From a bacterium (GTDB lineage: Bacteria; Patescibacteriota; CPR2; UBA1875; CAIMLA01), in the NCBI GenBank assembly GCA_037129835.1, contig JBAXUE010000002.1, positions 66,334 to 130,333 of the forward strand: DNA of 64,000 nt, read 5' to 3'. A program made the translations under genes and the position numbers. Position 1 is the first letter of the stretch. Each line of letters opens with the position of its first letter. Positions 2,846 to 53,377 of this stretch are shown one piece after another. Under the pieces are notes generated by a model, which did not search any database, was not told where the DNA came from, and saw nothing but the letters and a program-made list of their open reading frames with translations.

Positions 2846-2890
2846 GTTCGATGCTCGCTTCGGGGGAGAGGACCACAATATTTGTATAAT

Positions 2891-2912
2891 AATTTATTAA
2901 TATTAATAAATT
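2891..2912. repeat. perfect 22-nt AT-only palindrome AATTTATTAATATTAATAAATT
   Basis: The sequence equals its own reverse complement. It lies 46 nt after the ftsQ stop. Confidence 0.9.
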
Positions 2913-2955
2913 AACTTCTAGGTATAAACGTATAAATGCCATAATGTTAATTTAA

Positions 2956-2993
2956 CTAATTATTTGATAATAATACAATTATCAAATAATTAG
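2956..2993. repeat. perfect 16-bp inverted repeat (CTAATTATTTGATAAT / ATTATCAAATAATTAG) with 6-nt spacer
   Basis: Read directly from the sequence. The arms are exact reverse complements. Confidence 0.9.
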
Positions 2994-2999
2994 TATTTT

Positions 3000-3027
3000 A
3001 CAGTTCAAATAATATATTATGTTAAAC
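3000..3027. other. candidate dif (XerC/XerD) recombination site
   Basis: ACAGTTCAAAT-AATATA-TTATGTTAAAC. The right arm matches the E. coli dif XerD arm TTATGTTAAAT at 10/11, with an AT-rich 6-nt centre. It lies in the only convergent strand-switch gap of the window. The left arm is a weak match. Confidence 0.35.
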
Positions 3028-3456
3028 TATACATTTAACAATTTACTTGCAAAGAAAACTCCAGCCACATACTGCAGAGCTATTACAGATACAGAATAAC
3101 TTTCTCCAATATTTAGGCTTTGCAAAGATATAAACGATGTATTTTTATCGTTTTCTATGACCACTTACACCCCCAAGTCGATATAATCAAATAGTCGTCC
3201 AAGATATATTGTGCGACACAATGCTTCAAGCAGTTCTGGTAGGTAAGGGTGAGGCTATGGTAGTCATCTAAGTATTTAATTAGGTCGACCCATACCGTTT
3301 AGACTTAGGGCGCAGAGAAAAAAGGGGGAACTTCTTTTACTTTATAATGTAACAATTCTATTGTATTTTGATTAAGTAATTGAGTATTTTAAAAATAATC
3401 CCCCCAAAAAAAATTGGATATAATTTGTAATCATAAACGATAACTTAATATATTAA

Positions 3457-6453
3457 TTAAAACCGGATTTCTTCGCCTGGCTTTATCTCTTTAGTACTAC
3501 TGATGATTATTTTTTCATGTGGAAGTATCGTGGTTATGTCTTTAAAGTCACTAGGAGCTATCTCTCGTTGCTTTTTGTCGCTATGAGTACTGTTTGTATG
3601 TATTGTACTCGGTTTCGCCACTGTGACGATGATTTCTTTTATCTCAGTCTTTGTCTCCAATTTTGGTTTTTCAATGGGGGAATCCAGCTTCTTGGGTTCT
3701 ATATTTTTTGTATTTTCGGTAATTGCCTGTTTTAACTTATCTGCCAGCTGAGTGTTATCGTTTTTTACTTCACTCTTTCCCCTATTTAAATTTGAATTAG
3801 AACGAGAATTTGTGTTCTTTTCTTTATTGTTACTATTAAATTTGTTTTTACTTCTCTCATTATTGTCGTTATGATCATTACTACTATTATTGGAAATATT
3901 GGTATTACCGCTAGCGCTAGGTTTTTCTTTATCTGGTTGCGGAGTAACCATTTCTTTGTTAGCAGGTGGAATGTAATTAGGATTTGTAATAGGTCTATCG
4001 CCTTCGTTGGCATTCACGCCAGCGATTACCGAATCGATATTGTACCATTTCCGAATATCGTCTTCTACTTTCTTTTTTGGAGTACCGTATTTTTTTCGCG
4101 AAATAGCAATTACTATGCTCGTTAGATCTTCCGTTGGCTCTGCAGAGGGAATACTTTTTGCTGAGAATGGTGAGCTATTTACTCCATTTACTGGCATATT
4201 AAGGTATAAATGCCGATTGTCTAGATTGATAAGGTCATTCTGTGAAAATATAGGCTCAAATTCTTTTTCTAGAAAGCTAGCATCTGTTGCGCCCACCCTA
4301 AATGATATCAGAGTACCTACGTTGCCAAATACCGCGTCTCTAACCTCTTCCTCCATCTGTGCAACGTATTGGTTGGCCACAGCTAGGGAAAGATGGTATT
4401 TTCGGGCTTCAGAAAGAATGGTTCCAAAGGATTCTGTGGCAAAATTTTGAAACTCATCAACGTAAAGATAGAAGTCTTTCCTCTCTGATTCAGGAATAAA
4501 CGCTCTTTGCATGGCAGCGAGCTGGATTTTTGTGATTATTAATGAGCCAAGAAGTTCTGAGTTTATCTCCCCTATTTTGCCCGTTGATAGATCTACTAGT
4601 AATATTTTTCCCGTATCCATTATTTCTGAAAAGTTAACAGTGCTTTTTGGTTGACCAACAATATTGCGAATAGTTTCTGAAGCTGTAAATTGGCCAACTT
4701 TATTAAGAATAGGCGCTACAGTCTCAGTAGCCATTTTATCATTATAGGTAGAAAACTCTTTGAGCCAGAACATCTGTACTACTGGGTCAGTTACTTGGCT
4801 AACTACATTTTTGCGATAATTTTTATCGGTTAGCATTCTGACAATACCTAGCATAGTAGAGCCCTCAACTTCTGCTAGCGCTAGTACCGTGTGATTTAAG
4901 ACATATTCTAGCCTTGGCCCCCAGGAGAACCCAAACATTCTCTTCAGTACTGATATAAAGCCCTTTGCAGTCTCTTCACGCATTCCAGGGGGGCTTTCCA
5001 GGGGATTAAAACCTAGGGGAAACTCTTTATCAGAGGGGTTAAGATAAATAACATCATCTAGGCGCTCTTTGGGGATAAATTTAAGAATATTATCTATAGC
5101 CTCTCCATGAGGATCAATAAAGGCTACACCCTCCCCTCTTTGGATATCTTGTATCGCTAAACCTTCAAGAAGCCTAGACTTTCCTACTCCAGTTTTCCCG
5201 ATTATGTACATATGTCTTCGTCTATCATCTCTTTTGATCCCGAACAGTTTATCGCTATTTCGGAAAGTTGTAATCGCAAGGGGTGAAATGTCTTTATCGT
5301 TAATGTTTTCATCAGTAATGAAGGGCAAGCTTGATGGTGGTTCGCCTTTTTTCGAAGATGTCCATACGATATTGGGCGTTTCTACCGAAACATGTGGCAA
5401 GTGATATAAACTTGCAAGTTCTTCAATATTAAGATCATAGCCCTTGTCATTAAATAGTCTTGCCCGATAAGCGTTTAAGAATTCTTCACTTGTAAATAAA
5501 CCCTTCCCAGTAAAGCCATTTAAGTTTGTTGTATTAAATTGTTTAAAAGCACCAACAACGGCTTGAATTTTATCGGTAGCCTTTTCTCTGGACTTAGAAA
5601 GATATACAACCCTTATCATGACGCGATACCCGAGTTTGGCGCTCTTGTCTTCAATGGCTGTTAACTCAGTTTCTTCTGCATGAGAAAGTTTAGGCGCCTC
5701 AGGCTTAGCATCTTTTTTAGCTTCTACGGGTGCAACATTGAGCGCATTGAATATAAAATCTAGAGGGAGGGTGCCGGAGTTGGGTTTTATGGTTTTTTTA
5801 GACGCGATATATGAAAGAGCTTTTTTCCTCCAGTCGTCATTTTCTGGTTTTGCGAGTATTTGAATCCAAATTTGTTCATTTGGCTCATTGGTCATAGAAA
5901 GCATGCCCGTAATTCCTGCCAGCGGGTCAACATCAAAGTTCAAAAAAGTTTTTATTGGGTAAATATCATCTTTTGTAAGAAGTAATTCTGTTCCCGCAAT
6001 AGCATCTGGATTTTTATCACCGTCTACATCGGTTGTTTTTGAGTAGTCATTAACCACTGATATTTCCGCAGTCGGATATTGAGCATAGACTTGACCTTCT
6101 ACAAATTCTTTAATCTTCTTGGGCACCCAGATGAAAAATTCTATAGAATTTAACGTAGAGACGATTTCAAGGCTGAAATGTTCTTGTACGGTGGTTCCCT
6201 TTTTTTGTTCGCTTTTTGAATGAAGAATACCGTGTAGGGCTGCGAACATCATTTCTGCTGCCACAGGGCCTTTCTCATTATTTTTAGGTATTTTTATTGA
6301 TAAGACAGTATGTTCAATTTCGTTTACGTATGAAGCTTTTTTAAAATTTTTCCATGAAAAAAATAGAACTAGTGGTACTATAAACCACCAAGTCCAAACT
6401 ACAACACTCCACATTCCTCCAAGTATCGCTAAGCTAAGTTCCTGCAAAAACAT
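3457..6453 (-). CDS. membrane-anchored TraD/VirD4/HerA-FtsK-like P-loop ATPase with low-complexity C-terminal tail
   Basis: N-terminal TM (WSVVVWTWWFIVPLVLFFSW), Walker A IIGKTGVGKSRLLE, Walker B FYLYVDEFQNF. The last ~190 aa are N/S/K-rich low complexity. Its start overlaps the upstream stop by 1 nt (TAATG). Confidence 0.75.
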   Translation of the reverse strand: MFLQELSLAILGGMWSVVVWTWWFIVPLVLFFSWKNFKKASYVNEIEHTVLSIKIPKNNEKGPVAAEMMFAALHGILHSKSEQKKGTTVQEHFSLEIVSTLNSIEFFIWVPKKIKEFVEGQVYAQYPTAEISVVNDYSKTTDVDGDKNPDAIAGTELLLTKDDIYPIKTFLNFDVDPLAGITGMLSMTNEPNEQIWIQILAKPENDDWRKKALSYIASKKTIKPNSGTLPLDFIFNALNVAPVEAKKDAKPEAPKLSHAEETELTAIEDKSAKLGYRVMIRVVYLSKSREKATDKIQAVVGAFKQFNTTNLNGFTGKGLFTSEEFLNAYRARLFNDKGYDLNIEELASLYHLPHVSVETPNIVWTSSKKGEPPSSLPFITDENINDKDISPLAITTFRNSDKLFGIKRDDRRRHMYIIGKTGVGKSRLLEGLAIQDIQRGEGVAFIDPHGEAIDNILKFIPKERLDDVIYLNPSDKEFPLGFNPLESPPGMREETAKGFISVLKRMFGFSWGPRLEYVLNHTVLALAEVEGSTMLGIVRMLTDKNYRKNVVSQVTDPVVQMFWLKEFSTYNDKMATETVAPILNKVGQFTASETIRNIVGQPKSTVNFSEIMDTGKILLVDLSTGKIGEINSELLGSLIITKIQLAAMQRAFIPESERKDFYLYVDEFQNFATESFGTILSEARKYHLSLAVANQYVAQMEEEVRDAVFGNVGTLISFRVGATDASFLEKEFEPIFSQNDLINLDNRHLYLNMPVNGVNSSPFSAKSIPSAEPTEDLTSIVIAISRKKYGTPKKKVEDDIRKWYNIDSVIAGVNANEGDRPITNPNYIPPANKEMVTPQPDKEKPSASGNTNISNNSSNDHNDNNERSKNKFNSNNKEKNTNSRSNSNLNRGKSEVKNDNTQLADKLKQAITENTKNIEPKKLDSPIEKPKLETKTEIKEIIVTVAKPSTIHTNSTHSDKKQREIAPSDFKDITTILPHEKIIISSTKEIKPGEEIRF

Positions 6454-18967: not shown

Positions 18968-19342
18968 CTAGTCTTCGACCTCATCGATCCCGAGCATCGC
19001 TCTCGCGACTTCGATATCGGGTGCCAGGTCGAAGTTGTTGGTGTACTTCACCAACTTCTTAGAGACCTTCTCGTCCTCGGGGACTACGATCACAAACGGA
19101 ATGTGATCATTCATCAGGTACCGACCAAAGCTGTAGATACGGCCGATAGCCGCGCTACAAAGCTTGGTGACCATTGCGAGGTCGAGAATGACTCCGGCCT
19201 TGCGGGCCTTTATCAGAGTCTTGTCGAACTCGAGTCGGAGAACCGGCTCGACACTGTCGTCGAGATTTCCTCCGAGCTTCAGGATCACGGCCTTGTGGCC
19301 GTTACCTGCTTCGAACTTTTCGATACTGTGTACACAATGCAT
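18968..19342 (-). CDS. STAS-domain protein (anti-sigma-antagonist fold), in G+C-rich islet
   Basis: 124 aa with the pattern VILKLGGNLD...EPVLRLEFDKTLIKARKAGVILDLAMVTKLCSAAIG typical of SpoIIAA/STAS. G+C clearly above its neighbours. Confidence 0.6.
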   Translation of the reverse strand: MHCVHSIEKFEAGNGHKAVILKLGGNLDDSVEPVLRLEFDKTLIKARKAGVILDLAMVTKLCSAAIGRIYSFGRYLMNDHIPFVIVVPEDEKVSKKLVKYTNNFDLAPDIEVARAMLGIDEVED

Positions 19343-19666: not shown

Positions 19667-19759
19667 GTGGCTCACCTCCCAAACGATGTTATCGTGATTG
19701 AGACAAAGAGGATTATACAACATAATGAGTGTTCTGTAAAGATAAACATATACTCCCCA

Positions 19760-19861
19760 GTCATCCATGGCCCGCTTTCGTCATCCTTGCGAACGCGAGG
19801 GTCTCTTTTGGCAACGTCATCCTGAGTCGAAACGAAGCTTGCCTGCGGTAAGCAGGGATCC
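19760..19861 (+). repeat. three tandem GTCATCC modules
   Basis: GTCATCC starts at 19760, 19780 and 19816. The last module contains the hairpin CCTGCGGTAAGCAGG. Confidence 0.85.
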
Positions 19862-20234
19862 ATGTCCACTCTCCTTATCGTTCGAATTCTAATGAGAACT
19901 ACAGATACAGGTTATATGTAGTTTTCATAGGATCTACGTAATCCAACCATCAGTTCGAAAAGAAAGAGAGTAAAGTAACGAAGTTATAATAAATAACTTC
20001 CGGTATCGGCTTGTTGTTATTTATTATATTTGAGCTACTGCAACGAATGATACTTTAAAGAATCTGTTAGGTTGGGCTTTTTGCACCACTTTTATTAAAA
20101 AAGTGGCATATATTATAATATAACGTTTAAAAGATATTCGCTAAAGTCGTAATTGCTCGACCTCGAAGATAGTCGAGTACACGGTACCAAGGCGATTTTT
20201 CATTGGGATTAACGCTTAAATATACCGCCCCTTT

Positions 20235-20330
20235 GTCATCCCTGGTCGCACTTGTCCTCCAGTAGCTTGTTAGCGAAGTAGGAACCCCAGTCTGCCCGAG
20301 CCGTACGCTCGTGTCGGCCAGGGGGATCTC
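20235..20330 (+). repeat. GTCATCCCTGG...CCAGGGGGATCTC module with ~55-nt insert
   Basis: Same ends as the short modules at 21275 and 34750-34779. The internal AGTAGC..GCGAAG..AAC resembles 21328-21343. Confidence 0.75.
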
Positions 20331-20331
20331 T

Positions 20332-36651: not shown

Positions 36652-36668
36652 AAATAATAGTTCTTTTG

Positions 36669-36818
36669 TTATTTCTTCCTTCTTTCTTTTTCACATCTAT
36701 CAATATAATTAATAGTTACTTCTGCAATTGTTTCTGGTGTTTCATTTAGCACATCAGTCAGGTATCCTATCCCGAATCGAATTTCTTGTTTTTCTTTTTC
36801 TGTTAGATACATAAACAT
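36669..36818 (-). CDS. possible small leader ORF (49 aa) upstream of metK
   Basis: ATG at 36818 (MFMYLTEKEK...), 17 nt before the metK start. Weak SD and no homology recognised. Confidence 0.3.
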   Translation of the reverse strand: MFMYLTEKEKQEIRFGIGYLTDVLNETPETIAEVTINYIDRCEKERRKK

Positions 36819-37174
36819 CCCTTTCTTTTCTTTCTTTTCTTTTGAAAAATCATTAGGTAGCCTCAGCTGCCCGACTATCAACGATTGCCAGAAATTGCGT
36901 TAAACGAATTTCTTAATGAGTTGAAGGAGTCGATTTTCCTGAACCTGGCGCCACCTGCTTTCAAGAGGAGGTGGCAATTAATAAAATTAATCTGCCGTAA
37001 TCTATAACTATTTAACTACTTATTTTGATACCTTTGTCTTTCGTCACAAAGGTATCGCCAAAAGACTCTTTTCATGCGGACTCACTGCGGTTCACCGCAA
37101 TGTCTGATAATATTTTGTTTTCAGAAACATCGTTGTCATTGAATCAACTTTCATCAAGTTAGTTATTTACCAAT

Positions 37175-37350
37175 CAAAAAATCTTTCCATTTGGAAAGAT
37201 AAGTTCGACCTTTGAGTTTTCACTCCTTATCGTTCCGCATTTGCGGCTAGCATTGGCACCCATTTGGTGTGGGTTGCCGGCAGGTACCGCCGTCGCGACG
37301 CTATGTCGGTCAGGCATCGGGCTAGTTCCCTATCTGCACTCTTGATATAT
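37175..37350 (-). promoter_or_regulatory. SAM-I (S-box) riboswitch with intrinsic terminator
   Basis: The - strand reads TATCAAGAG..AGATAGGGAACTAGCCCGATG..GCCGGCAACCC..GGTGCCAATGCTAGCCG..AACGATAAGGAG, matching S-box conserved blocks. Terminator ATCTTTCC-AAAT-GGAAAGAT+T6 at 37200-37175. Extended -10 TGATATAAT at 37373-37365. metK lies downstream. Confidence 0.85.
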
Positions 37351-37370
37351 TTGATTGTAGATATATTATA

Positions 37371-46650: not shown

Positions 46651-46863
46651 GCTCGCTCCCCCCGATAGTAATGGATACCAGACTAGGTGATAATATACTA
46701 AAATATTTGTCAGAGCAAGGTAAATCTGCTCAAAATTAATTAATAATTGTAAATATATTTTGTAATATGCGGCCATTTTCTTTGCATAAAGCCACAAAGG
46801 TTCTCTCAGCTTTTGCTCAGATTTGATGTATACAATATAGATGTCATTTAAACAAGGAAGGAG

Positions 46864-47142
46864 ATGAATGACAAAACCTGGCGAGTAGTGATCGCCGCTA
46901 TCAAGACTTGGCGCCACTGGAGGACACGAATTTCACAAAGAGTTGGTGCTAGTGTGTCGCAAAAGTCGGATAGCAAATACAGTTCAGGGCTAGAAGTACA
47001 TATTCTCAGCTCGGGCAGGGTCACGAAAACCACCACAACTAAATATATATTTTTCATTCCACTCAAAATAATAGAGGCCATCCCCCGGCCTCTATTATTA
47101 TTAATATCAATAATGCAAAAAGCCATCGTTTGGGAACGATAG
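46864..47142 (+). CDS. doubtful ORF (92 aa) in G+C-rich islet
   Basis: AAGGAAGGAG lies right before the ATG, with TTGCTC-17-TATAGA upstream. However, the ORF runs through a strong hairpin (47073-47093) and its C-half is low quality. Confidence 0.25.
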   Translation: MNDKTWRVVIAAIKTWRHWRTRISQRVGASVSQKSDSKYSSGLEVHILSSGRVTKTTTTKYIFFIPLKIIEAIPRPLLLLISIMQKAIVWER

Positions 47143-47269
47143 CTTCCATAGGCATTCCTCTCTGTTGTTGGAATAATAGATGGTTTGCTGTTTGGTCGAA
47201 GTCCTCTGCGATATTACTCGCTCTCTCACCTACTGGTGAGACCCATGGGCTCCATTGTTGCGGTGTTGA

Positions 47270-47500: not shown

Positions 47501-47631
47501 GATTGTCTCCAATCGCTAAACGCTGGTTTGATCCAACGCTGTCGTCTTATGAACGACAAGAACTGATAGGACTTAACACAAACGATATTATAGTCATTTA
47601 ACGGGGTTTTGTCAATAAGCATCAATAATAA

Positions 47632-47664
47632 AGCCGAGGTGATCTTTCCCCCTCGGTTTTATTT
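47632..47664 (-). terminator. intrinsic terminator of the ABC operon (bidirectional shape)
   Basis: CCGAGG...CCTCGG stem flanked by an A-run and a T-run, starting about 10 nt after the ATPase stop. Confidence 0.7.
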
Positions 47665-47672
47665 AATGGTAA

Positions 47673-48554
47673 TTATTTTGCTACTTTGCCGTCGACTATC
47701 GTGATCGTACGAGTGCAGAGTTTGGCCACTTCTGGATTATGGGTAACAATTATAAATGTCTGCCCGTGCTGATTGAGTCGAACTATAAGATCCATTATTT
47801 CTTTGGTCATTTTGATATCTAGTTCTCCTGTAAGCTCATCACCAAATATAATTGCTGGTTTATTTACTAGAGAGCGAGCTATTGCTACTCTCTGCCGTTG
47901 ACCGCCCGAAAGTTCGTTTGGAGTGTGAGTAAGTCTATCTCCAAGCCCCACAAGCCTTAACGATTTTTCTGCAAGTGCCCTTCGTTCGTTTCTCGGAGTT
48001 TTTCCATAACGGAGTGGTAGCATCACATTTTCTATGGCTGTCAGCGTTGGAATCAGATTGAAAGATTGAAAGACAAAGCCGAGCTCGCTAGATCGGACTT
48101 CTGGTAGTTTGTTTTGACTAATTCCAGTAACATTGACGCCTCGTAGAAATATCTGCCCAGTCGTTGGCTCGTCTAGAAGGCCTAGCATATTTAAAAGAGT
48201 TGATTTCCCAGAACCAGATGGTCCCATAATAGCAACCATCTCCCCCTTTTTAATATCTATGTCCACGCCATTTAGGGCATGGACAACAACCCCTTTTTCA
48301 TTTTTGCCTTCTTTTATTTTTTTACCCGTTAGAAAATGATAAGTTTCGACGTATTTTTCTTTATCAAATAAATCTTGTGCTTTTTCTAGTCTTATCTCAA
48401 TTTCAGAAATTTTTTCAGTATTATTCTTTGAAACTGCTTTTTCATAAGCATGATGAAGTTTGTGGATTGCTTCCTGGGCCTTTATTGCCACCTTCTTATT
48501 CCCCATAATGTAAACCTTGCGAAGGTTATTAAGCTTTAGAATAGTATCGGCCAT
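47673..48554 (-). CDS. ABC transporter ATP-binding protein (MacB/LolD type) with ~65-aa N-terminal insertion
   Basis: GPSGSGKST, LSGGQRQR, IIFGDELTGELD. A helical insert lies between the first beta-strand (ILKLNNLRKVY) and VHALNGVDIDI. Confidence 0.88.
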   Translation of the reverse strand: MADTILKLNNLRKVYIMGNKKVAIKAQEAIHKLHHAYEKAVSKNNTEKISEIEIRLEKAQDLFDKEKYVETYHFLTGKKIKEGKNEKGVVVHALNGVDIDIKKGEMVAIMGPSGSGKSTLLNMLGLLDEPTTGQIFLRGVNVTGISQNKLPEVRSSELGFVFQSFNLIPTLTAIENVMLPLRYGKTPRNERRALAEKSLRLVGLGDRLTHTPNELSGGQRQRVAIARSLVNKPAIIFGDELTGELDIKMTKEIMDLIVRLNQHGQTFIIVTHNPEVAKLCTRTITIVDGKVAK

Positions 48555-48556
48555 GA

Positions 48557-49711
48557 TTATTCCTCCCTCAGTGATTTAACAATACTGATTTTCACCGCAT
48601 AGTAAGCGGGGTAAATACCCGCAATTACGCCGATGGCGAGCGAGAATATCATTGAACCGATAAGTAACCTAGGAGTGAGTAAAAATATCTTGTCCCCAGT
48701 CTGCTCCATATAATAGTTCACTAAATATACAATAACAGCTCCAAGGGCTATCCCGATGGCGCCACCAAAAAATCCGATAACGCCAGCTTCTGTAAGATAT
48801 TCGAGTAATATATTGCGGTTTTTTGCCCCTAGAGCTTTCTTTATCCCTATTTCCTTAGTTCTTTCTGAAATTGACATCGTCATGGTATTGACTATTGATA
48901 GCGTGCCAACAAGAAGTGAGATGATACAAATTCCGTAAATAATTGAGTTAAAAGTTTGCATTGTAGATGCTATTTGGTCTTGAAATTGTTTCGGTCCAAG
49001 AGTATCAACGCCTTTGACCTCTTTCTTTATTTTTTCTGATAATTTATTTGGGTCTACACCTTTTTTAGGATAGGCAATAAAGCCATAAACCAGATCGTCT
49101 GGTTTCGTAGTATTTCTAAGTAATTCGGGTAATTCATTGTACATTATTTCTCTACCATCATGTAAAGAGACGGATATTTGAGTATCAGGTAGAGTGAAAG
49201 TTTTTTCGGCAATGCCAACAACTTCAAAATTTTTACCTCTAATTTTGATATTTTCTCCCACCTTGGCTTTTAGTTTTTTTACTAGGTCTGCGCCGACCAA
49301 TGCCTTGTTACGGTCTGAAGCAGTAATAGCTCGCCCACTAGTAAGTCTAATTTTAAAGCTTTCGTAATCGTTGGATTTTTCGTCAATGCTAATAATGTTT
49401 GCTAGTGGTCCAAGACTAGCAGTGATGTTATCACTAAGTAGTGAATAAGTTTCGGCCGCTACATATGCGACGCCATCGACTTTTTCTATTTCTTTTTTCT
49501 TATCAATCTTTAATGGGCTACTATATGTACTTATTTTGGCAGATATTTCTACTTTGTCCTTATAATATTCTGCCCCTCCATCTACAAGCAAACTCAGTTT
49601 CTCGGCGATAGCTCCCATAACCACAAGGGCCAGGATACCGATGGCGATACCAAAAACCGTCAGTAGTGTTCTGGTTTTTCGTCTCCACATATTTTTTAAG
49701 ATTTCAAACAT
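48557..49711 (-). CDS. ABC transporter permease, MacB/FtsX-like
   Basis: N-terminal TM, periplasmic MacB_PCD-like domain, and a C-terminal FtsX 3-TM bundle (ERTKEIGIKKALGA). Confidence 0.85.
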   Translation of the reverse strand: MFEILKNMWRRKTRTLLTVFGIAIGILALVVMGAIAEKLSLLVDGGAEYYKDKVEISAKISTYSSPLKIDKKKEIEKVDGVAYVAAETYSLLSDNITASLGPLANIISIDEKSNDYESFKIRLTSGRAITASDRNKALVGADLVKKLKAKVGENIKIRGKNFEVVGIAEKTFTLPDTQISVSLHDGREIMYNELPELLRNTTKPDDLVYGFIAYPKKGVDPNKLSEKIKKEVKGVDTLGPKQFQDQIASTMQTFNSIIYGICIISLLVGTLSIVNTMTMSISERTKEIGIKKALGAKNRNILLEYLTEAGVIGFFGGAIGIALGAVIVYLVNYYMEQTGDKIFLLTPRLLIGSMIFSLAIGVIAGIYPAYYAVKISIVKSLREE

Positions 49712-49762
49712 TTAATTCCTTATGATTATGAAAATATTTTAACATAATTATGAATGATAAAT

Positions 49763-49816
49763 AATAAAAAGAAAAGGCCCGCACTAGGGTAGGTGTGAAC
49801 CTTCTCTTTGCGGGCC
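49763..49816 (-). terminator. intrinsic terminator closing G+C-rich islet 3
   Basis: 8-bp stem GGCCCGCA/TGCGGGCC followed on the - strand by TTTTCTTTTTATT. Lies 13 nt after the stop at 49829. Confidence 0.7.
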
Positions 49817-49828
49817 GTTGTGTCTTGT

Positions 49829-50191
49829 TTAGAACAGGGAGGGCTGGTCTTTCCCAGCAGCATCAGACGTATCTGATACTTGCAGTTTGTCGATAGGTCC
49901 CTTTGGAAACCTCTCGACAAACTCCTCGAGATTACTGTCTTGCACCAACCAGCTCTGTTCTATCTTGCGATTGAACTTCCTACTCAGTGCATTGCTGATG
50001 ATGTGTGAGAAGTTCACAGTAGTAGTGAACTCCCGGGGACGAGCGTGCCACGCGTCGTGTTGCTTCTGCGTGACATAGATACCGACACTCAAGCCGGCGA
50101 CCTTGAATACCCCGATGTAGGGGCAATTGGGTCTGGTGACCTTCATTTTTGTTACATCTGTAGTGCTAGTGCGTTTGGCCAAGCCAAACAC
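49829..50191 (-). CDS. hypothetical protein (up to 120 aa), in G+C-rich islet
   Basis: GTG at 50191 abuts the upstream TGA (possible coupling). An alternative ATG is at 50146. No family recognised. Confidence 0.45.
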   Translation of the reverse strand: MFGLAKRTSTTDVTKMKVTRPNCPYIGVFKVAGLSVGIYVTQKQHDAWHARPREFTTTVNFSHIISNALSRKFNRKIEQSWLVQDSNLEEFVERFPKGPIDKLQVSDTSDAAGKDQPSLF

Positions 50192-50196
50192 CCCCT

Positions 50197-50550
50197 TCAG
50201 TTTAGTGAGATGTACAGGTCGGTTCTTGCTCTTTCAGGTTCGTGCCGGGCTGCCATAAAGAGTAAAACAATCGCTCTTCTGCTGGCCAAAACCAGTGTTT
50301 CAGGATCTTTGGTTGTTGGGCCGAAGCAACCGCTTTCGATGTACTCGATCTGATCGCCGATAATCTCAGCAATCGTGATCATGTCATCGGGCACTTGATA
50401 ATGTGCCGCGAAGTTTAGTACCGCCTCTCTTTGGACAGAAGCCGTTAACAGTACAGTAATACTGAGTTCAGGCTCGAGACCTAGATCTTCACAGCGTTGA
50501 ACTAGCATGTCTTGGACTGCCCCAAGTATTAGTGTGCTTAAAGCCGCCAT
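50197..50550 (-). CDS. hypothetical protein (117 aa), in G+C-rich islet
   Basis: ATG at 50550 is preceded by GAGGGGA plus 6 nt. The listed 5' extension lacks an SD. Confidence 0.5.
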   Translation of the reverse strand: MAALSTLILGAVQDMLVQRCEDLGLEPELSITVLLTASVQREAVLNFAAHYQVPDDMITIAEIIGDQIEYIESGCFGPTTKDPETLVLASRRAIVLLFMAARHEPERARTDLYISLN

Positions 50551-50640
50551 TGACAATCCCCTCGTTTCTAGACGAATTGTGTAGGTACAATGTAAATTAC
50601 TATACCACTTTATGGTATATTTGTAAAGCATGATTTACGC

Positions 50641-50670
50641 AAAAAACAGCCCTAAGTCGGGGCTGTTTGT
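50641..50670 (-). terminator. intrinsic (bidirectional-shaped) terminator
   Basis: AAAAAACAGCCC-TAAGTC-GGGGCTGTTTGT. On the - strand the stem is followed by TTTTTTG. Confidence 0.7.
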
Positions 50671-50842
50671 AATAAATTGCAGGTTGAGCCGCACTGTAGG
50701 GTAACAGTAGTGCGCGGCTTTGCCCATAGGCGAATCCTCTCTCATGAAGGGTTGTGGTATCTTACTTGAGTTATTGAGATTGACCTAATCCCAGAATCAA
50801 ACTGTTTCCAGTTACCCTTGATTCTGAGTGCAGAGTTTTGGG

Positions 50843-51118
50843 TTATCTTTTTTGGAAGAAGACTTTGCGACCAAGGTCCTGTGGTTTACAAACGGCCCAG
50901 AAAAGACTAAGTCCCATCTCGGATAAACCAAGAAGGTCATCTAGTAATTCTGGGTTATTCCATCGAACCTCTTTGCCGGCATACTTCTTGAGTAGTTCGT
51001 CGACGTCCCTGATATTTTGGTCTCTTTCGATTTCACGCCGTTGTTCTTCAAGGTCTACTAAGACCTCAATGTGATACCCATTACGCTGCAGAGCTTGTAA
51101 AAGAGCTAATTGAGTCAT
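50843..51118 (-). CDS. hypothetical protein (91 aa), in G+C-rich islet
   Basis: ATG at 51118 is preceded by AAGGGAG plus 5 nt. No family recognised. Confidence 0.5.
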   Translation of the reverse strand: MTQLALLQALQRNGYHIEVLVDLEEQRREIERDQNIRDVDELLKKYAGKEVRWNNPELLDDLLGLSEMGLSLFWAVCKPQDLGRKVFFQKR

Positions 51119-51268
51119 AAAGACTCCCTTCGTTTGACAGCACTTCGCAATATTGCGGAGTAACTGCATCATCACGTTGCCGCGACTCATGTGCGGTATT
51201 ATACTCTTTTTTACCTATATGTCAAGATAATTTACTGTTACAAGTTTTTGTTATAGGAATAGGTTGCT

Positions 51269-53377
51269 TTAGTTGAATTTAACTTCTGCGACCTTTGAGA
51301 TATCGCTAAGTTTATGACCCTGAATCATCGAATCCGAAATTGTGTACAAAATGTCACCAATATATAAAATTCTAGATATTGTACTGTTGGCTGCATAGTC
51401 GTAAGAATAATTATTTTTTGAGTTTTCGTTAGTTGTTTTGTGTGTGATGCGATCGCGGAACTGGAATCCTTTTTCTAAGTCCACTTTGTAAACATAGGCT
51501 CCTTGGAAAGTATCCGTACCATATGTATTTGCCTCTGCCCCAGTACTCGCCTTTTGTTCTGGTGTTAGCTCGGCAAGAGATATTGGTAACGATAATAGGC
51601 TTTTTGCTTTATCAAACAGAAACGCCTTTGGGTCTGTAAGGACTGGTGAATCAGTCCCTCGGTCACCTATTACCGTCTTGAACATTTCTTTTGGATTGGT
51701 AACATCTGTAACATCAAATATAGCCATCTTTACGCCCTGGTACCAAGCGAAGTCCAAATTTCTGCTTTCGATCGCTTCGGTGGAGGCGTCGATAGCTTCT
51801 TTTCCGATGCCGATAATGTGGTTTTCGTCATATGGATGTAAATAGTCAGAGTATCCCGGTATCTTTAGGTATCCAAGAACAGCGGGTTTCTCGGGATCCT
51901 TAAGGTCAATAACATAAAAAGGATCTACTTTTTTGAAAGTGACAAGGTACCCTCTATCTCCCATAAATCTGGCGGAATATATCTCTTCTCCTGGCGCAAG
52001 ATCTTCTAGGGCGCCAACTTGTTTCATGTCACCATTAAAAACATAAATATTATTTGTCGATTTATTGACTGTATCAGTAATACTTCCCTTGGTAGCGGCT
52101 ACTCTAAAAAATCCATTGCTCTCGTCCATAGAATATTGATTAAGCGCACTACCCTCTATCGAAGCCGAACTAAGATATTCAGAATTGTTACCTACTAGTT
52201 TAAATTTGTGGAACTGTGTTTTTGAGACAGTGTTCCTGGTATAGTTTGTATAAATTGGTTGTTCAAGACTGGCAAGATACAGGTTTTGGCTGGATGCATA
52301 TACAATGTCTGAATTTCCGATAATTGTCCGTCTATTGATTTCCTTGGTTTCGTCTTTGATCGATAGACTCACAACACTTACAAAGGTGTTATTGGTCTTA
52401 TCTTCTATATTATTAACGTTTTTGAAATATTCCACATCGGCACAGCCACAAGTGGGTTTATAAACTGCTTTGGCAGAACCTTGAACATCAGAATATTTAG
52501 GAAGTAGAGATAGGGCATCTGTTTGGGGTGTAATGACATTATAATTTGGATATGTATTAAGAACTAAGTGAACATTGTCACCAATCATTCTGCCAGCACT
52601 ATAATTACCTTCATACTCAACACTTCTAGTGAGTTTTGGGTTTGTCTTATTGCTAGTATCCCAGATTTTGATAAAAGTATAGGTGGTAGAGGGATTATAG
52701 GGTTTTGTAAACCTTTCGATAATACTATTATTTGTAGAGGTCTCTTTTGTAACTGTTTTATTGCCGATGGCTAATAACCTATTTTTCGCGATAAATAATT
52801 GACTAACATTTCCATAATCGCTACCCGTATATTCTTCAGGCATTATAGAGGAAGGGCTAGCATCGGTATTGTTACTTTCTACTACCTTGATTGTTTTTAC
52901 AAGTTTGGCATCTTCGGCGGGATAAGCTTTAACGATGTCAATGTTACCTTGCCTGACAGTATAGATATATTCACCATCATTCTTAACAGTATCAGCTTCG
53001 TCAACTCCCTCAACTTGCACATTCGTTTTAGAATAATCACTACTACCTCCTGTAGTATCTGCGGTAGTGGCTTCACCGGCCTCTATACTCATGCCAAGCG
53101 GGGCATTAACGCCTATGTTTTTTGTTTGTACATCTCTTGCGAGCATTTTAGTAATATCTCCGCAGGATTTTGCAGTTCCAATGTACGTATTATTAACTTT
53201 GATAGCGCTTTTCGATGTATTTCTTACGCGATAATACCAGCCCAAGGCGATAATTGAAAATAAGAATATAATTGCTATAGATCCAAAGAAAATTTTCATA
53301 AAGACAGGGCTTTTGTAAAAATTATTTTTTATAGAGTCCTTTTTTGTTATATCCATATCATCTCCTTTAATATACAT
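51269..53377 (-). CDS. secreted/anchored beta-propeller-domain protein (Beta_propel family-like)
   Basis: N-terminal TM. Segment SARFMGDRGYLVTFKKVDPFYVIDLKDPEKPAVLGYLKIPGYSDYLHPYDENHIIGIGK is characteristic of that family. Confidence 0.75.
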   Translation of the reverse strand: MYIKGDDMDITKKDSIKNNFYKSPVFMKIFFGSIAIIFLFSIIALGWYYRVRNTSKSAIKVNNTYIGTAKSCGDITKMLARDVQTKNIGVNAPLGMSIEAGEATTADTTGGSSDYSKTNVQVEGVDEADTVKNDGEYIYTVRQGNIDIVKAYPAEDAKLVKTIKVVESNNTDASPSSIMPEEYTGSDYGNVSQLFIAKNRLLAIGNKTVTKETSTNNSIIERFTKPYNPSTTYTFIKIWDTSNKTNPKLTRSVEYEGNYSAGRMIGDNVHLVLNTYPNYNVITPQTDALSLLPKYSDVQGSAKAVYKPTCGCADVEYFKNVNNIEDKTNNTFVSVVSLSIKDETKEINRRTIIGNSDIVYASSQNLYLASLEQPIYTNYTRNTVSKTQFHKFKLVGNNSEYLSSASIEGSALNQYSMDESNGFFRVAATKGSITDTVNKSTNNIYVFNGDMKQVGALEDLAPGEEIYSARFMGDRGYLVTFKKVDPFYVIDLKDPEKPAVLGYLKIPGYSDYLHPYDENHIIGIGKEAIDASTEAIESRNLDFAWYQGVKMAIFDVTDVTNPKEMFKTVIGDRGTDSPVLTDPKAFLFDKAKSLLSLPISLAELTPEQKASTGAEANTYGTDTFQGAYVYKVDLEKGFQFRDRITHKTTNENSKNNYSYDYAANSTISRILYIGDILYTISDSMIQGHKLSDISKVAEVKFN

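Follow-up and report, generated by a model that had tools for sequence, protein, structure and literature searches.

Small toxins that target DnaN have been described in SocB (PMC9690074), with RipA/RipB as the second case (PMC12795458). SocB and RipA are unrelated in sequence (PMC12795458), and the kind is therefore defined by its target and not by homology. SocAB of Caulobacter crescentus and the Rosmer-type RipAB of Streptococcus pneumoniae each place two small accessory genes in one operon, and SocB employs the usual clamp-binding motif (PMC9690074). That motif reads QL[S/D]LF or QxxLF in consensus form, and its first, fourth, and fifth positions are the critical ones (PMC12309361, PMC9690074).

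The locus described here, islet 3, is one of three G+C-rich islets that an earlier note had marked in a window of 64,000 nucleotides (the whole stretch of DNA that was analyzed, in whose coordinates all positions are given). Like the toxin pairs, it has two small accessory genes, ORF B and ORF C, in one operon, and ORF C carries a pentapeptide of the clamp-binding kind. It differs in that ORF B and ORF C have no sequence or fold similarity to those pairs, that the clamp link here is a putative one, drawn from a five-residue motif, that the alleles of B and C do not co-vary, and that one homologue of ORF C has no partner directly upstream. With clamp-motif proteins (PolC with its C-terminal QLSLF, Pol II, Pol IV, Hda, MutS, and some transposases) ORF C shares the terminal QxxLF on a flexible tail, and its relative on contig L040 has the full consensus QLSLF (PMC12309361, PMC4549789). 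It differs from them in being a protein of 117 aa whose domain has no fold match and which lacks any polymerase, repair, or transposase domain, and in that the alleles found at this locus have P/Q and S/T at the middle motif positions.

Phage morons, known from lambdoid phages, are genes of atypical composition that sit singly between resident genes, each equipped with a promoter and a terminator of its own. The units of islet 3 are likewise autonomous promoter-gene-terminator modules with G+C above that of their neighbors, but they lie in a cellular chromosome and not a prophage, and phage relatives were not found among GenBank phages or in IMG/VR. The pneumococcal blp bacteriocin-immunity region is a mosaic of strain-variable small genes next to an ABC transporter in naturally transformable bacteria. 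Islet 3 resembles it in its conserved linkers and diverged coding cores, in apparent shuffling by recombination, and in an adjacent ABC exporter operon that is present or absent between strains; unlike blp, it has no double-glycine leaders, signal peptides, membrane segments, nearby peptidase-ABC exporter, or two-component regulator. The genomes of Saccharibacteria, which are tiny parasitic bacteria, and of their relatives are very small, and a large share of the genes in them is without known function; pointers to the roles of the strain-variable ones are scarce.

Our best explanation is that islet 3 belongs natively to the chromosome of freshwater Saccharibacteria, as an accessory segment that varies between strains. 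That it holds real, polymorphic, recombining accessory genes we state with high confidence; the explanation as a whole, the clamp link included, we put forward tentatively and with a little more doubt than belief. The locus would be a clear natural case of old alleles swapped via conserved non-coding linkers in an uncultivated lake population. If the clamp link is true, small clamp-targeting proteins gain a third lineage, unrelated to the other two, and there is a way into the replication control or conflict systems of an epibiotic bacterium. If it is false, this is an ordinary orphan-gene set, which mainly teaches that islets of deviant composition in such genomes are not necessarily foreign DNA.

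Two transcription units in a cellular chromosome

Islet 3 is organized as two self-contained transcription units, both on the minus strand. Unit 1 runs from promoter P_A through ORF A (91 aa) and a 200-nt structured 3' region to terminator T1, and unit 2 from promoter P_B through ORF B (117 aa) and ORF C (117 aa, TTG start) to terminator T2. ORF B and ORF C are spaced by 14 nt and form one operon bounded by P_B and T2. P_A (51198..51225, minus strand) consists of TTGACA, 16 nt, and TATAAT, with 12 of 12 consensus matches; P_B (50599..50627, minus strand) consists of TTTACA, 17 nt, and TATAGT plus a TG extension, with 10 of 12 matches, and its spacer contains the inverted repeat ATACCA-taaag-TGGTAT. 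Both promoters are of the consensus sigma-70 type seen at host genes.

The earlier note had described three minus-strand ORFs with strong Shine-Dalgarno (SD) sequences. The ORFs and their SDs stand, but one start has to be moved. ORF A (50843..51118) encodes an acidic, probably helical protein of 91 aa (pI 5.4) and is preceded by a 5' UTR (51119..51197) with the SD AAGGGAG (51124-51130) and a 20-bp near-palindrome, ACTCCGCAATATTGCGAAGT (51142-51161). ORF B (50197..50550; SD GAGGGGA, 50557-50563) encodes an acidic protein of 117 aa (pI 4.45, charge -9) that is predicted to be all-helical; its AlphaFold model has five helices at low confidence (pLDDT 51). ORF C (49829..50182; SD AAGGGGG, 50191-50197) begins with the TTG at 50182, the start that gene callers choose and that every allele retains, and has 117 aa; the GTG at 50191, which would give the 120-aa reading, falls within the SD itself (50197-50191), and the diverged allele on contig L041 has GAG in place of the internal ATG at 50147.

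By their between-strain substitution patterns all three ORFs are coding. For ORF A, pN/pS in frame is 0.24/0.405 (dN/dS ~0.5), and the other two frames are at ~1; for ORF B, pS is 0.82 (synonymous sites saturated) against a pN of 0.39, with off-frame ratios above 1; for ORF C, the in-frame dN/dS of 0.22-0.29 compares with 1.0-1.8 in the other frames. Off-frame dN/dS controls for the three ORFs together range from about 0.9 to 1.8. On this evidence, ORFs A, B, and C are genuine, fast-evolving protein genes, found in this population only, apart from a few distant relatives of ORF C.

Domain searches of the window ORFs against Pfam, NCBIfam, PHROGs, and PADLOC returned nothing significant, in keeping with the earlier note's observation that the islet has no recognizable domains and no mobility gene. 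The L041 alleles and the ORF C homologues gave noise only (Pfam for all of them, NCBIfam for L041 ORFs A and B, and PHROGs for P0003 and P0006). PDB sequence profiles gave nothing, nor did IMG/VR scans and tblastn against GenBank phages with all three proteins, or tblastn of ORF B and ORF C against PLSDB plasmids. Word-indexed protein searches took ORF A, ORF B, and a profile of ORF C as queries; those with ORF A and ORF B found nothing, a weak negative, given that the same search missed ORF A and ORF B of L041. The earlier note had proposed looking for the same cassettes in other taxa; a scan of JGI metagenomes with ORF B gave the same contigs only, and relatives in other named taxa were found for none of the three proteins, the searches for A and B being non-exhaustive.

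ORF C was also taken through an exhaustive HMMER search of 1.84 billion representatives, and its family counts five members. Two giant repeat proteins (P0004 and P0005) were discarded as spurious repeat matches. Invariant in the window protein, P0002, P0003, and L040 are R17, P18, N19, P21, Y22, F26, V28, G30, T38, Q39, Q41, D43, W45, P49, N57, S59, H60, L66, W78, V80, and R91, of which D43 and L66 no longer hold once P0009 is included. The protein (pI 9.56 overall) has a basic folded domain at residues 1-92 (pI 9.9) and an acidic disordered tail. Its model (pLDDT 61) has the order strand-strand-strand-helix-helix-strand, with the tail below 50 pLDDT from residue 96, and fold searches with it gave no match. 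An AP2/integrase-arm-like domain was considered for ORF C and found no support. None of the islet 3 proteins has a membrane segment, signal peptide, or double-glycine leader.

Both terminators proposed in the earlier note are intrinsic (Rho-independent) terminators, that is, a G+C-rich stem-loop and a U-run located 3' of a gene on the same strand. T1 (50641..50670, minus strand) has the stem AACAGCCC/GGGCUGUU (50644-50668) with a 7-nt loop, followed by U6 (to 50641), and folds at -13.3 kcal/mol (z -3.2); L041 retains the stem and differs in loop bases alone. T2 (49763..49816, minus strand) has the stem GGCCCGCA/UGCGGGCC (49776-49816) plus an inner stem, then UUUUCUUUUU, with its U-run at 49766-49775; it folds at -21.6 kcal/mol (z -4.6) and is kept in three of three haplotypes.

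Between ORF A and T1 lies a structured 3' UTR or intergenic region (50671..50842, minus strand). The imperfect hairpin at 50686-50725, which the earlier note had pointed out, is present (-17.2 kcal/mol, z -2.0), and a further one at 50790-50828, absent from that note, is of similar energy (-17 kcal/mol) with a z of -5.3 and an inner GAAA tetraloop. A 210-nt fold of the region after ORF A reaches -61.2 kcal/mol (z -3.56), better than 200 of 200 shuffles, with four hairpins. There is no Rfam match at the gathering score across the whole window, and for the islet, E values up to 5 gave chance-level matches only; a search for tRNA and tmRNA found none.

The chromosomal context is cellular (TopA, DprA, Pth, Der, and MetK). 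The DprA gene in the window matches PF02481. Next to T2 lies an ABC operon of a MacB/FtsX-type permease and an ATPase, identified by Pfam matches, with its own terminator (47594..49762, minus strand). A genome scan with the permease found its nearest reference genomes at 58-65% aa identity, without synteny and without the islet genes. More than 10 independent assemblies carry the islet 3 sequence, one of them a 372-kb contig, and it is present in several samples and in all haplotypes seen.

Base composition and origin

The G+C content of 49763-51225 is 46.2%, against a mean of 39.0% for the whole window. Host-only windows of equal length (1463 nt) have a mean of 38.5% with a standard deviation of 2.7% and a maximum of 45.2%, and none of the 5424 attains the islet's value, which confirms the sudden shift that had been noted after the ABC permease gene. 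The step lies just upstream of the permease start, where G+C rises from ~0.40 (49550-49849) to 0.50-0.51 (49850-50299).

This excess is not of one kind. ORF C has a GC3 of 0.61 (z=5.1, against 0.354 +/- 0.050 in 44 host genes). In ORF A and ORF B, GC3 is near that of the host, with third codon positions only mildly atypical, and GC1 is raised (0.62, z=3.0, and 0.585, z=2.3, respectively); located at first codon positions, their excess reflects amino-acid content. The intergenic stretch, at 45.8%, adds to the total. In ORF C and all its known relatives GC3 is 0.58-0.77 despite an allele dS of ~0.45-0.6, and such a lasting high GC3 is difficult to square with long residence under the AT-biased composition of this host.

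The dinucleotide signature of islet 3 lies at a delta* of 0.099 from the host, and 8.8% of host segments are equally far or farther. Islet 2 is fully host-like, islet 1 is unlike both of the others, and the distance between islets 2 and 3 is no smaller than that between random host segments. These distances lend nothing to the common donor that had been proposed for the three islets, whose proteins are mutually dissimilar and for which the window contains no paralogues or donor copies. Repeated independent capture also fails for two of them, because islets 3 and 2 are contiguous on L041 and hence are not independent captures.

No tRNA, integrase, transposase domain, attC-like site, or flanking repeat was found at islet 3. 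An integron gene cassette is a promoterless ORF with an attC site, arrayed beside an integrase. We rejected this identification: each unit here has its own promoter and terminator, without repeated attC-like sites and without an integrase.

Diverged alleles in conserved linkers

The alleles of the locus are deeply diverged and sit in nearly identical linkers (94-100%). Our comparison covers three haplotypes, and L041, a single 1.5-kb contig, could in principle be a paralogous copy and not an allele. Between the window and L041 the 5' UTR of ORF A is 100% identical (57 of 57 positions, in an otherwise diverged allele), the intergenic region 93.6%, and the B-C junction 100%. Nucleotide identity over coding sequence is 72.8% for ORF A (59% aa), 51.7% for ORF B (two gap-free alleles, 48% aa), 90% for the 5' part of ORF C, and 75-76% for its 3' part. 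P_B belongs to a diverged block (75% identity with L041).

Two variable patches stand out. Patch 1 (51205..51421, minus strand) covers the 3' end of a beta-propeller gene, the intergenic spacer, and the P_A region, and shows 32-33 differences in 173-196 nt (L007/L038); in these strains the -35 neighborhood and spacer of P_A fall inside it. Patch 2 (49823..50041, minus strand) covers codons 48-117 of ORF C plus 6 nt, and has three about equidistant alleles (~24-25% nt divergence) within identical flanks. The same 55 differences occur in L002, L006, and L010, L038 has 56, and L001 has a cluster with matching size and bounds. The borders are sharp: 55 differences per 219 bp, then one across the next 2.1 kb.

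The order of segments also varies. Positions 1-1421 of L041 correspond to window 51176-49763, and positions 1458-1518 to window 47593-47533 at 95%; on that contig T2 is directly followed by the promoter and 5' UTR of islet 2, and the ABC operon is absent. As islet 3 abuts islet 2 there, the operon between them is an indel.

In these comparisons, the coding cores are old, deeply diverged alleles, and the linkers and ORF ends are nearly identical between haplotypes. Since diverged cores sit in near-identical linkers and ORF ends, we infer that alleles have been swapped by homologous recombination between co-occurring strains. A runs test on the three ORF C alleles shows local runs but is not significant overall (P 0.77). 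The pattern resembles the trace of long-term balancing or diversifying selection.

A diversity-generating retroelement is recognized by variation that is confined to adenines when compared with a template repeat, and by a reverse transcriptase in the vicinity. It was rejected for patch 2, where substitutions are of all types, mostly synonymous, and the same in independent contigs, with no template copy in the window.

The candidate clamp motif, the B-C pair, and the rival explanations

The last five codons of ORF C (49832..49846, minus strand) encode Q-P-S-L-F, a candidate beta-sliding-clamp-binding motif of the QxxLF type. The C-termini are QPSLF in the window, QQTLF in P0002 and P0009, and QLSLF in L040, so that four of four full-length homologues have Q-x-S/T-L-F and agree with the consensus at positions 1, 4, and 5. 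Q, L, and F are invariant in tails that are otherwise ~15% identical, and the L codon of the motif in L040 has changed synonymously. Such a terminus is expected by chance in 1.1e-4 per protein, and one other was seen among 1349 background ORFs. It is placed at the extreme C-terminus, on the flexible tail. Against clamp binding, the middle positions (P/Q/L and S/T) are off the strict consensus in three of the four members. C-termini of the form S/T-x-hydrophobic may serve other partners, such as PDZ domains and tail-specific proteases, and an acidic tail with a final F is reminiscent of SSB tips. That ORF C binds the clamp we regard as possible rather than probable.

In the explanation that we favor, unit 2 would encode an acidic/basic protein pair, with the upstream gene acidic (pI 4.45) and the downstream gene basic (pI 9.56). 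ORF C would combine a basic folded domain with a flexible acidic tail whose Q-x-S/T-L-F end may dock on the clamp, and ORF B would be its partner or antidote, as in the clamp-targeting pairs SocAB and RipAB. A toxin/antidote pair in the strict sense, argued by analogy, is quite doubtful. No similarity to SocA/B, RipA/B, or any toxin-antitoxin or defense family appeared in Pfam, NCBIfam, PADLOC, PDB sequence, or fold searches. Strain 2 has an identical B beside a C whose C-terminal half is replaced, and strain 3 a 52%-diverged B beside a nearly unchanged N-terminal half of C. In favor of a pair, the one homologue that has its own promoter and no partner gene directly upstream, P0003 (L039), is also the one without the motif-bearing tail. 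A weak hint in the same direction is an ORF fragment that precedes the homologue in L040 and shows a faint alignment to ORF B (hhalign P 0.0095), although BLASTP finds nothing there. We think it improbable, though worth stating, that ORF C founds a new Saccharibacteria family of small clamp-docking proteins and forms with ORF B a replisome-targeting module unrelated to SocAB/RipAB, with ancient alleles under frequency-dependent selection; such a module would act between strains, against phages, or on replication of the epibionts' bacterial host.

Several other readings of islet 3 must be weighed against this one. It is rather unlikely, in our judgment, that these are ordinary lineage-specific orphan genes without a shared function, with G+C owed to amino-acid content and frequent recombination (GC-biased gene conversion) and a terminal QxxLF that is coincidental or meant for another partner (a protease degron or SSB-like tip). 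Many such genes exist in the small genomes of this phylum, family, fold, and context give no functional pointer, the G+C excess of ORFs A and B is located at first codon positions, and the locus is clearly a recombination site; yet Q, L, and F persist through tails that have otherwise diverged and through a synonymous change, at a motif probability of ~1e-4 per protein, and purifying selection on ORFs A, B, and C and a strong promoter and terminator for each unit also count against it. Deep allelic divergence within identical flanks would be unexpected if the genes were inconsequential. The capture of short foreign cassettes, which the earlier note had suggested and which would have been recent, from a donor of higher G+C (a host bacterium, a phage, or another Patescibacterium) and with composition still unadapted, is unlikely. 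Part of the case for it holds, namely the composition that no equal-length host window attains, the high GC3 of the ORF C family, which includes two members in other genomic contexts, and the structural variability of a locus where the ABC operon is an indel. Patescibacteria are, moreover, documented to exchange genes frequently (PMC12455944). Set against these are host-like dinucleotides, promoters of the consensus host type, the near-host GC3 of ORFs A and B, and the lack of an integrase, tRNA, or att-like or flanking repeats. Homologues were not found in other named taxa, in the phage and viral sets searched with A, B, and C, or in the plasmids searched with B and C, and neither a donor nor a mobility gene was found; islets 2 and 3 form one block on L041, and every haplotype seen carries islet 3.

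A locus whose functional product is mainly a structured non-coding RNA between ORF A and T1, perhaps with the 5' UTRs, the ORFs being incidental, is very unlikely, the ORFs being clearly coding. Its attraction lies in the 45.8% G+C, the fold, and the four hairpins of the intergenic region, and in its conservation: 50640-50842, T1 included, is 93.6% identical to L041 between ORFs at 73% (A) and 52% (B), and the changes turn the tetraloop GAAA into GAGA (also GNRA), fall in other loops, or give G-U pairs. The conserved blocks, however, cross coding/non-coding borders (the first 20 and last 12 codons of ORF A and the first 47 of ORF C), and recent recombination therefore fits better than RNA constraint. 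No Rfam family is matched even at E values up to 5, no internal promoter was seen, and three near-identical sequences give no power for covariation. Finally, an artefact, either an assembly chimera or a patch that is the target of a diversity-generating retroelement, might be suspected from the abrupt composition border and from a small gene whose 3' end holds a hypervariable patch. Its probability is close to negligible: a chimera is excluded by both junctions, which are 100% identical across independent ENA, JGI, and Logan assemblies (L003, L004, L005, L008, L009, and L011), including the 372-kb contig, and the patch differences are as described above.

Under the improbable reading of a new clamp-docking family, the locus could also have a regulatory RNA, supplied by the conserved structured stretch that follows ORF A. 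A 36-codon ORF inside it is frameshifted in L041. In the 5' UTR of ORF A, a single SNP of strain 2 (51158C>T) turns the near-palindrome into a perfect palindrome.

Integrity, genes and transcription of islet 3

The best reading of islet 3, the G+C-rich minus-strand segment at 49763-51225, is a block of small, lineage-specific genes that varies among strains and recombines, rather than a foreign cassette acquired by capture. The window belongs to a cellular chromosome. Almost every gene lies on the minus strand, and the products include TopA, DprA, Pth, the Der/EngA GTPase, MetK, a P-type ATPase, and ABC transporters; the ABC permease adjoining the islet is 58-65% identical to metagenome-assembled Saccharibacteria/Patescibacteria proteins. 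ENA, JGI, and Logan assemblies also contain the islet sequence, on a contig of 372 kb and on many shorter ones. Six independent assemblies show the same junctions with 100% identity, which rules out the chimeric assembly that the earlier note had allowed for.

The three ORFs with SD sites can be read as that note described them, the start of ORF C excepted. ORF A lies at 50843-51118, ORF B at 50197-50550, and ORF C at 49829-50182. The ORF C frame and its SD are present, but translation starts not at the GTG inside the SD (120 aa) but at a conserved TTG at 50182 (117 aa); an internal ATG, GAG in another allele, is not the start either. We used diverged versions of the locus for a substitution test, namely strain 2 (a second haplotype group: L001, L002, L006, L007, L010, L038) and the third haplotype, the 1.5-kb contig L041. 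In frame, pN/pS was 0.24/0.405 for ORF A and 0.39/0.82 for ORF B (synonymous sites saturated), and dN/dS was 0.22-0.29 for ORF C; off-frame dN/dS was 0.9-1.0, 1.25-1.6, and 1.0-1.8, respectively. Allele length is constant and gap-free for all three. These substitution patterns show that ORFs A, B, and C encode proteins and are subject to purifying selection. ORFs on the plus strand are spurious.

Both claimed terminators are there, each followed by a U-run: T1 (50641-50670, between ORFs A and B) at -13.3 kcal/mol and T2 (49763-49816, closing the islet) at -21.6 kcal/mol. The imperfect hairpin noted at 50686-50725 is also present, and a stronger one (50790-50828; -17 kcal/mol, z -5.3) lies just past the ORF A stop. 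A sigma-70 promoter with 12/12 consensus matches precedes ORF A and one with 10/12 matches and a TG extension precedes ORF B, so islet 3 comprises two transcription units. Ordinary host genes also have perfect promoters, and these are therefore no mark of foreign DNA.

The roughly 200 nt from ORF A to T1 fold well (z -3.56) and may function as a regulatory 3' UTR or yield a 3'-derived RNA; Rfam gave no family match for this region. Between haplotypes a hairpin tetraloop changes from GAAA to GAGA, and the terminator varies in its loop, not its stem. RNA constraint is inseparable from recombination here, because the three sequences are near-identical and their conservation runs into coding sequence. 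In the ORF A 5' UTR, a 20-bp near-palindrome (ACTCCGCAATATTGCGAAGT, 51142-51161), made perfect by the strain 2 change 51158C>T, could be an operator or an RNA hairpin.

Elsewhere in the window, a TrwB/VirD4-type coupling-protein domain of type IV secretion (E 1.2e-5) is present in a 998-aa protein (3457-6453, minus strand). By our own ORF picks, four stretches of 611-719 nt hold no placed gene (19697-20331, 46651-47269, 36652-37370, and 2846-3456), which is unusual given the compactness of the genome; they could leave room for small genes or RNAs. The first lies in islet 1 and the second in islet 2 (other G+C-rich stretches of the window), both at 41-42% G+C, and 46651-47269 does hold automatic gene calls (78 aa on the same strand in contig L001, 92 aa on the opposite strand in contig L008).

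Foreign capture or recombination within the lineage

The abrupt composition shift claimed for the islet is real. Its G+C content is 46.2% against a window mean of 39.0%, the step falls immediately upstream of the ABC permease start, and 0/5424 host-only windows of the same length reach this value (mean 38.5%, sd 2.7, maximum 45.2). The excess has three sources: the GC3 of ORF C (0.61 versus 0.354 ± 0.050 in 44 host genes, z 5.1); the GC1 of ORFs A (0.62) and B (0.585), which reflects amino-acid content; and an intergenic stretch at 45.8% G+C.

The earlier note read this shift as repeated capture of short foreign cassettes, perhaps from a higher-GC host or phage, and that reading stands only in part. 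In its favor, GC3 is 0.58-0.77 throughout the ORF C family, in every context, although dS between alleles is about 0.45-0.6. Against it, the dinucleotide signature and regulatory signals of islet 3 are of host type; neither a donor nor a mobility gene, tRNA, or repeat border turned up for it; and the islets are not independent. Nor did a common donor hold up. Islet 2 is indistinguishable from the host in dinucleotide signature and no closer to islet 3 than random host segments are to one another, and islet 1 differs from both, being the only one of the three to depart from the host. Foreign capture is still a conceivable origin of islet 3, and of ORF C most of all. Transfer between members is common in Patescibacteria (PMC12455944), and the likeliest donor, if any, is a relative of higher G+C.

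The reading as a recombining block draws on the haplotypes. Islet 3 differs from strain 2 only at five isolated bases and in two patches with sharp edges. Patch 1 (51421/51377-51205; 32-33 differences) covers the end of a beta-propeller gene and the ORF A promoter. Patch 2 (50041-49823; 55 differences in 219 bp) covers ORF C codons 48-117; identical differences occur in three independent contigs, two more contigs have a cluster of 55 and 56, and the ABC genes past it show one difference in 2.1 kb. Relative to L041, the islet is a mosaic of conserved and diverged segments, with identities of 100% (ORF A 5' UTR), 72.8% (ORF A), 93.6% (A-B intergenic region), 75% (ORF B promoter), 51.7% (ORF B), 100% (B-C junction), 90% (first 47 codons of ORF C), 76% (its remainder), and 88% (3' UTR with T2, the T2 hairpin itself near-identical). 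Neutral non-coding sites are expected to diverge like synonymous sites, which are 40-82% different between haplotypes. Because the linkers diverge less than this and the conserved blocks cross coding/non-coding borders, the simplest reading is that recombination has recently taken place around coding cores that are old and diverged.

The three ORF C alleles lie at roughly equal distances from one another, and an overall runs test for recombination among them was not significant. One sample, ERZ27299992, holds different islet 3 alleles together with a distant homologue (contig L039). A DprA gene, a putative sign of competence, lies within the window. A diversity-generating retroelement was rejected, as the substitutions are of all types, mostly synonymous, and the same in independent contigs.

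In islet 1, a 124-aa ORF (18968-19342, minus strand) reaches a GC3 of 0.70, the highest in the window, and matches STAS/anti-sigma-factor antagonists weakly and below threshold (TIGR00377; E 1.7e-4; 21 bits, cutoff 53).

Protein relatives and a candidate clamp-binding tail

As claimed, the islet has no recognisable domains or mobility gene: ORFs A, B, and C matched nothing in Pfam, NCBIfam, PHROGs, or PADLOC, nor in PDB sequence profiles, IMG/VR contigs, or GenBank phages, and ORFs B and C nothing among PLSDB plasmids. A 5.8-billion-protein word index returned only the own 98-99% clusters of ORFs A and B. This negative is weak, because the index also missed the L041 alleles (59% identity for ORF A, 48% for ORF B), though L041 is in the gene-position collection; caution is due with word-index negatives for proteins that are short and evolve fast. 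Exhaustive and profile searches for ORF C found two further alleles at the locus, P0002 (80%) and P0009 (76%), and two distant relatives on tiny contigs, P0003 (44%) and P0006/L040 (31-38%). The distant relatives at L040 509-690 and L039 60-325 are found in the same kind of layout, made up of a small gene rich in G+C, a terminator hairpin, a promoter within an AT-rich spacer (TTGACA-17-TATAAT, perfect, in L040; TTTACA/TATAGT, near consensus, in L039), a 5' UTR of some length, and a strong SD. This hints that related genomes contain a broader class of these units.

Membrane segments are absent from all three proteins. ORF B, with a pI of 4.45, is acidic and predicted, at low confidence, to be all-helical. 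ORF C is a basic protein (pI 9.56) whose tail is acidic; the ORF C model (pLDDT 61, moderate) has three strands, two helices, a strand, and a tail below pLDDT 50, and resembles no fold among the solved or viral structures searched.

That tail is the one specific, testable functional lead from islet 3. The last five residues of all four full-length family members follow the pattern Q-x-S/T-L-F: QPSLF in one, QQTLF in two, and QLSLF in the most distant. Conservation is otherwise poor along the tail, and in L040 the codon for the motif L shows a synonymous difference. Clamp-binding motifs of bacteria conform to QL[S/D]LF, more broadly QxxLF, with positions 1, 4, and 5 critical, and are frequently located at the very C-terminus, PolC being an example (PMC12309361, PMC9690074). 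A QxxLF ending is expected by chance in about 1e-4 of proteins and occurred in one other of 1349 background ORFs. From this motif, clamp binding by ORF C is a tentative proposal, somewhat less probable than its absence.

Small clamp-acting toxins exist: SocB employs the usual clamp-binding motif (PMC9690074), and an unrelated second example is RipA/RipB (PMC12795458). ORFs B and C resemble such a module in having an acidic gene upstream of a basic one, their own promoter with an inverted repeat, and an accessory, fast-evolving character; however, no homology to the known systems was found, and their alleles do not co-vary. An upstream B-like gene is hinted at by weak alignment in L040, and P0003, the single relative that has a promoter to itself but no partner gene directly upstream, is also without the tail. 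A toxin/antidote role for ORFs B and C, suggested by this analogy, is unlikely.

The other QxxLF ending belongs to a basic, 136-codon ORF (...SPNQQKLF; contig L013, 9400-9810, plus strand) of Patescibacteria genome UBA7522, 2.2 kb downstream of its ABC pair; judged by eye, it bears no obvious resemblance to ORF C. At residues 3-7 (51098-51112), the N-terminus of ORF A (MTQLALL...) contains Q-L-A-L-L, which resembles the MutS-type QxxLL clamp motif; it is more likely a mere piece of amphipathic helix, and its conservation is uninformative because the stretch is identical in all alleles.

The link to islet 2

About 36 nt beyond T2, L041 continues with the promoter and 5' UTR with which islet 2 begins in the window (1458-1518 of L041 match 47593-47533 at 95% identity). 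The ABC permease/ATPase operon, together with a terminator of its own (49762-47594), therefore reads as an indel in a single small-gene block, and islets 2 and 3 would, from this single 1.5-kb contig, be one block. Sequence at the join is unique, with no repeat able to mislead an assembler.

The MacB/FtsX ABC permease and ATPase operon (47594-49762) is absent here in L041 (1421-1518). Both its borders in the window carry TTTATTATT just past a terminator, which could be a deletion/insertion site or AT-rich chance. Islet 2 itself starts with a 12/12 promoter (47615-47587) followed by a 5' UTR with a hairpin, and this 5' UTR is 95% conserved in L041 (window 47533-47615), the same conserved-linker pattern as in islet 3.
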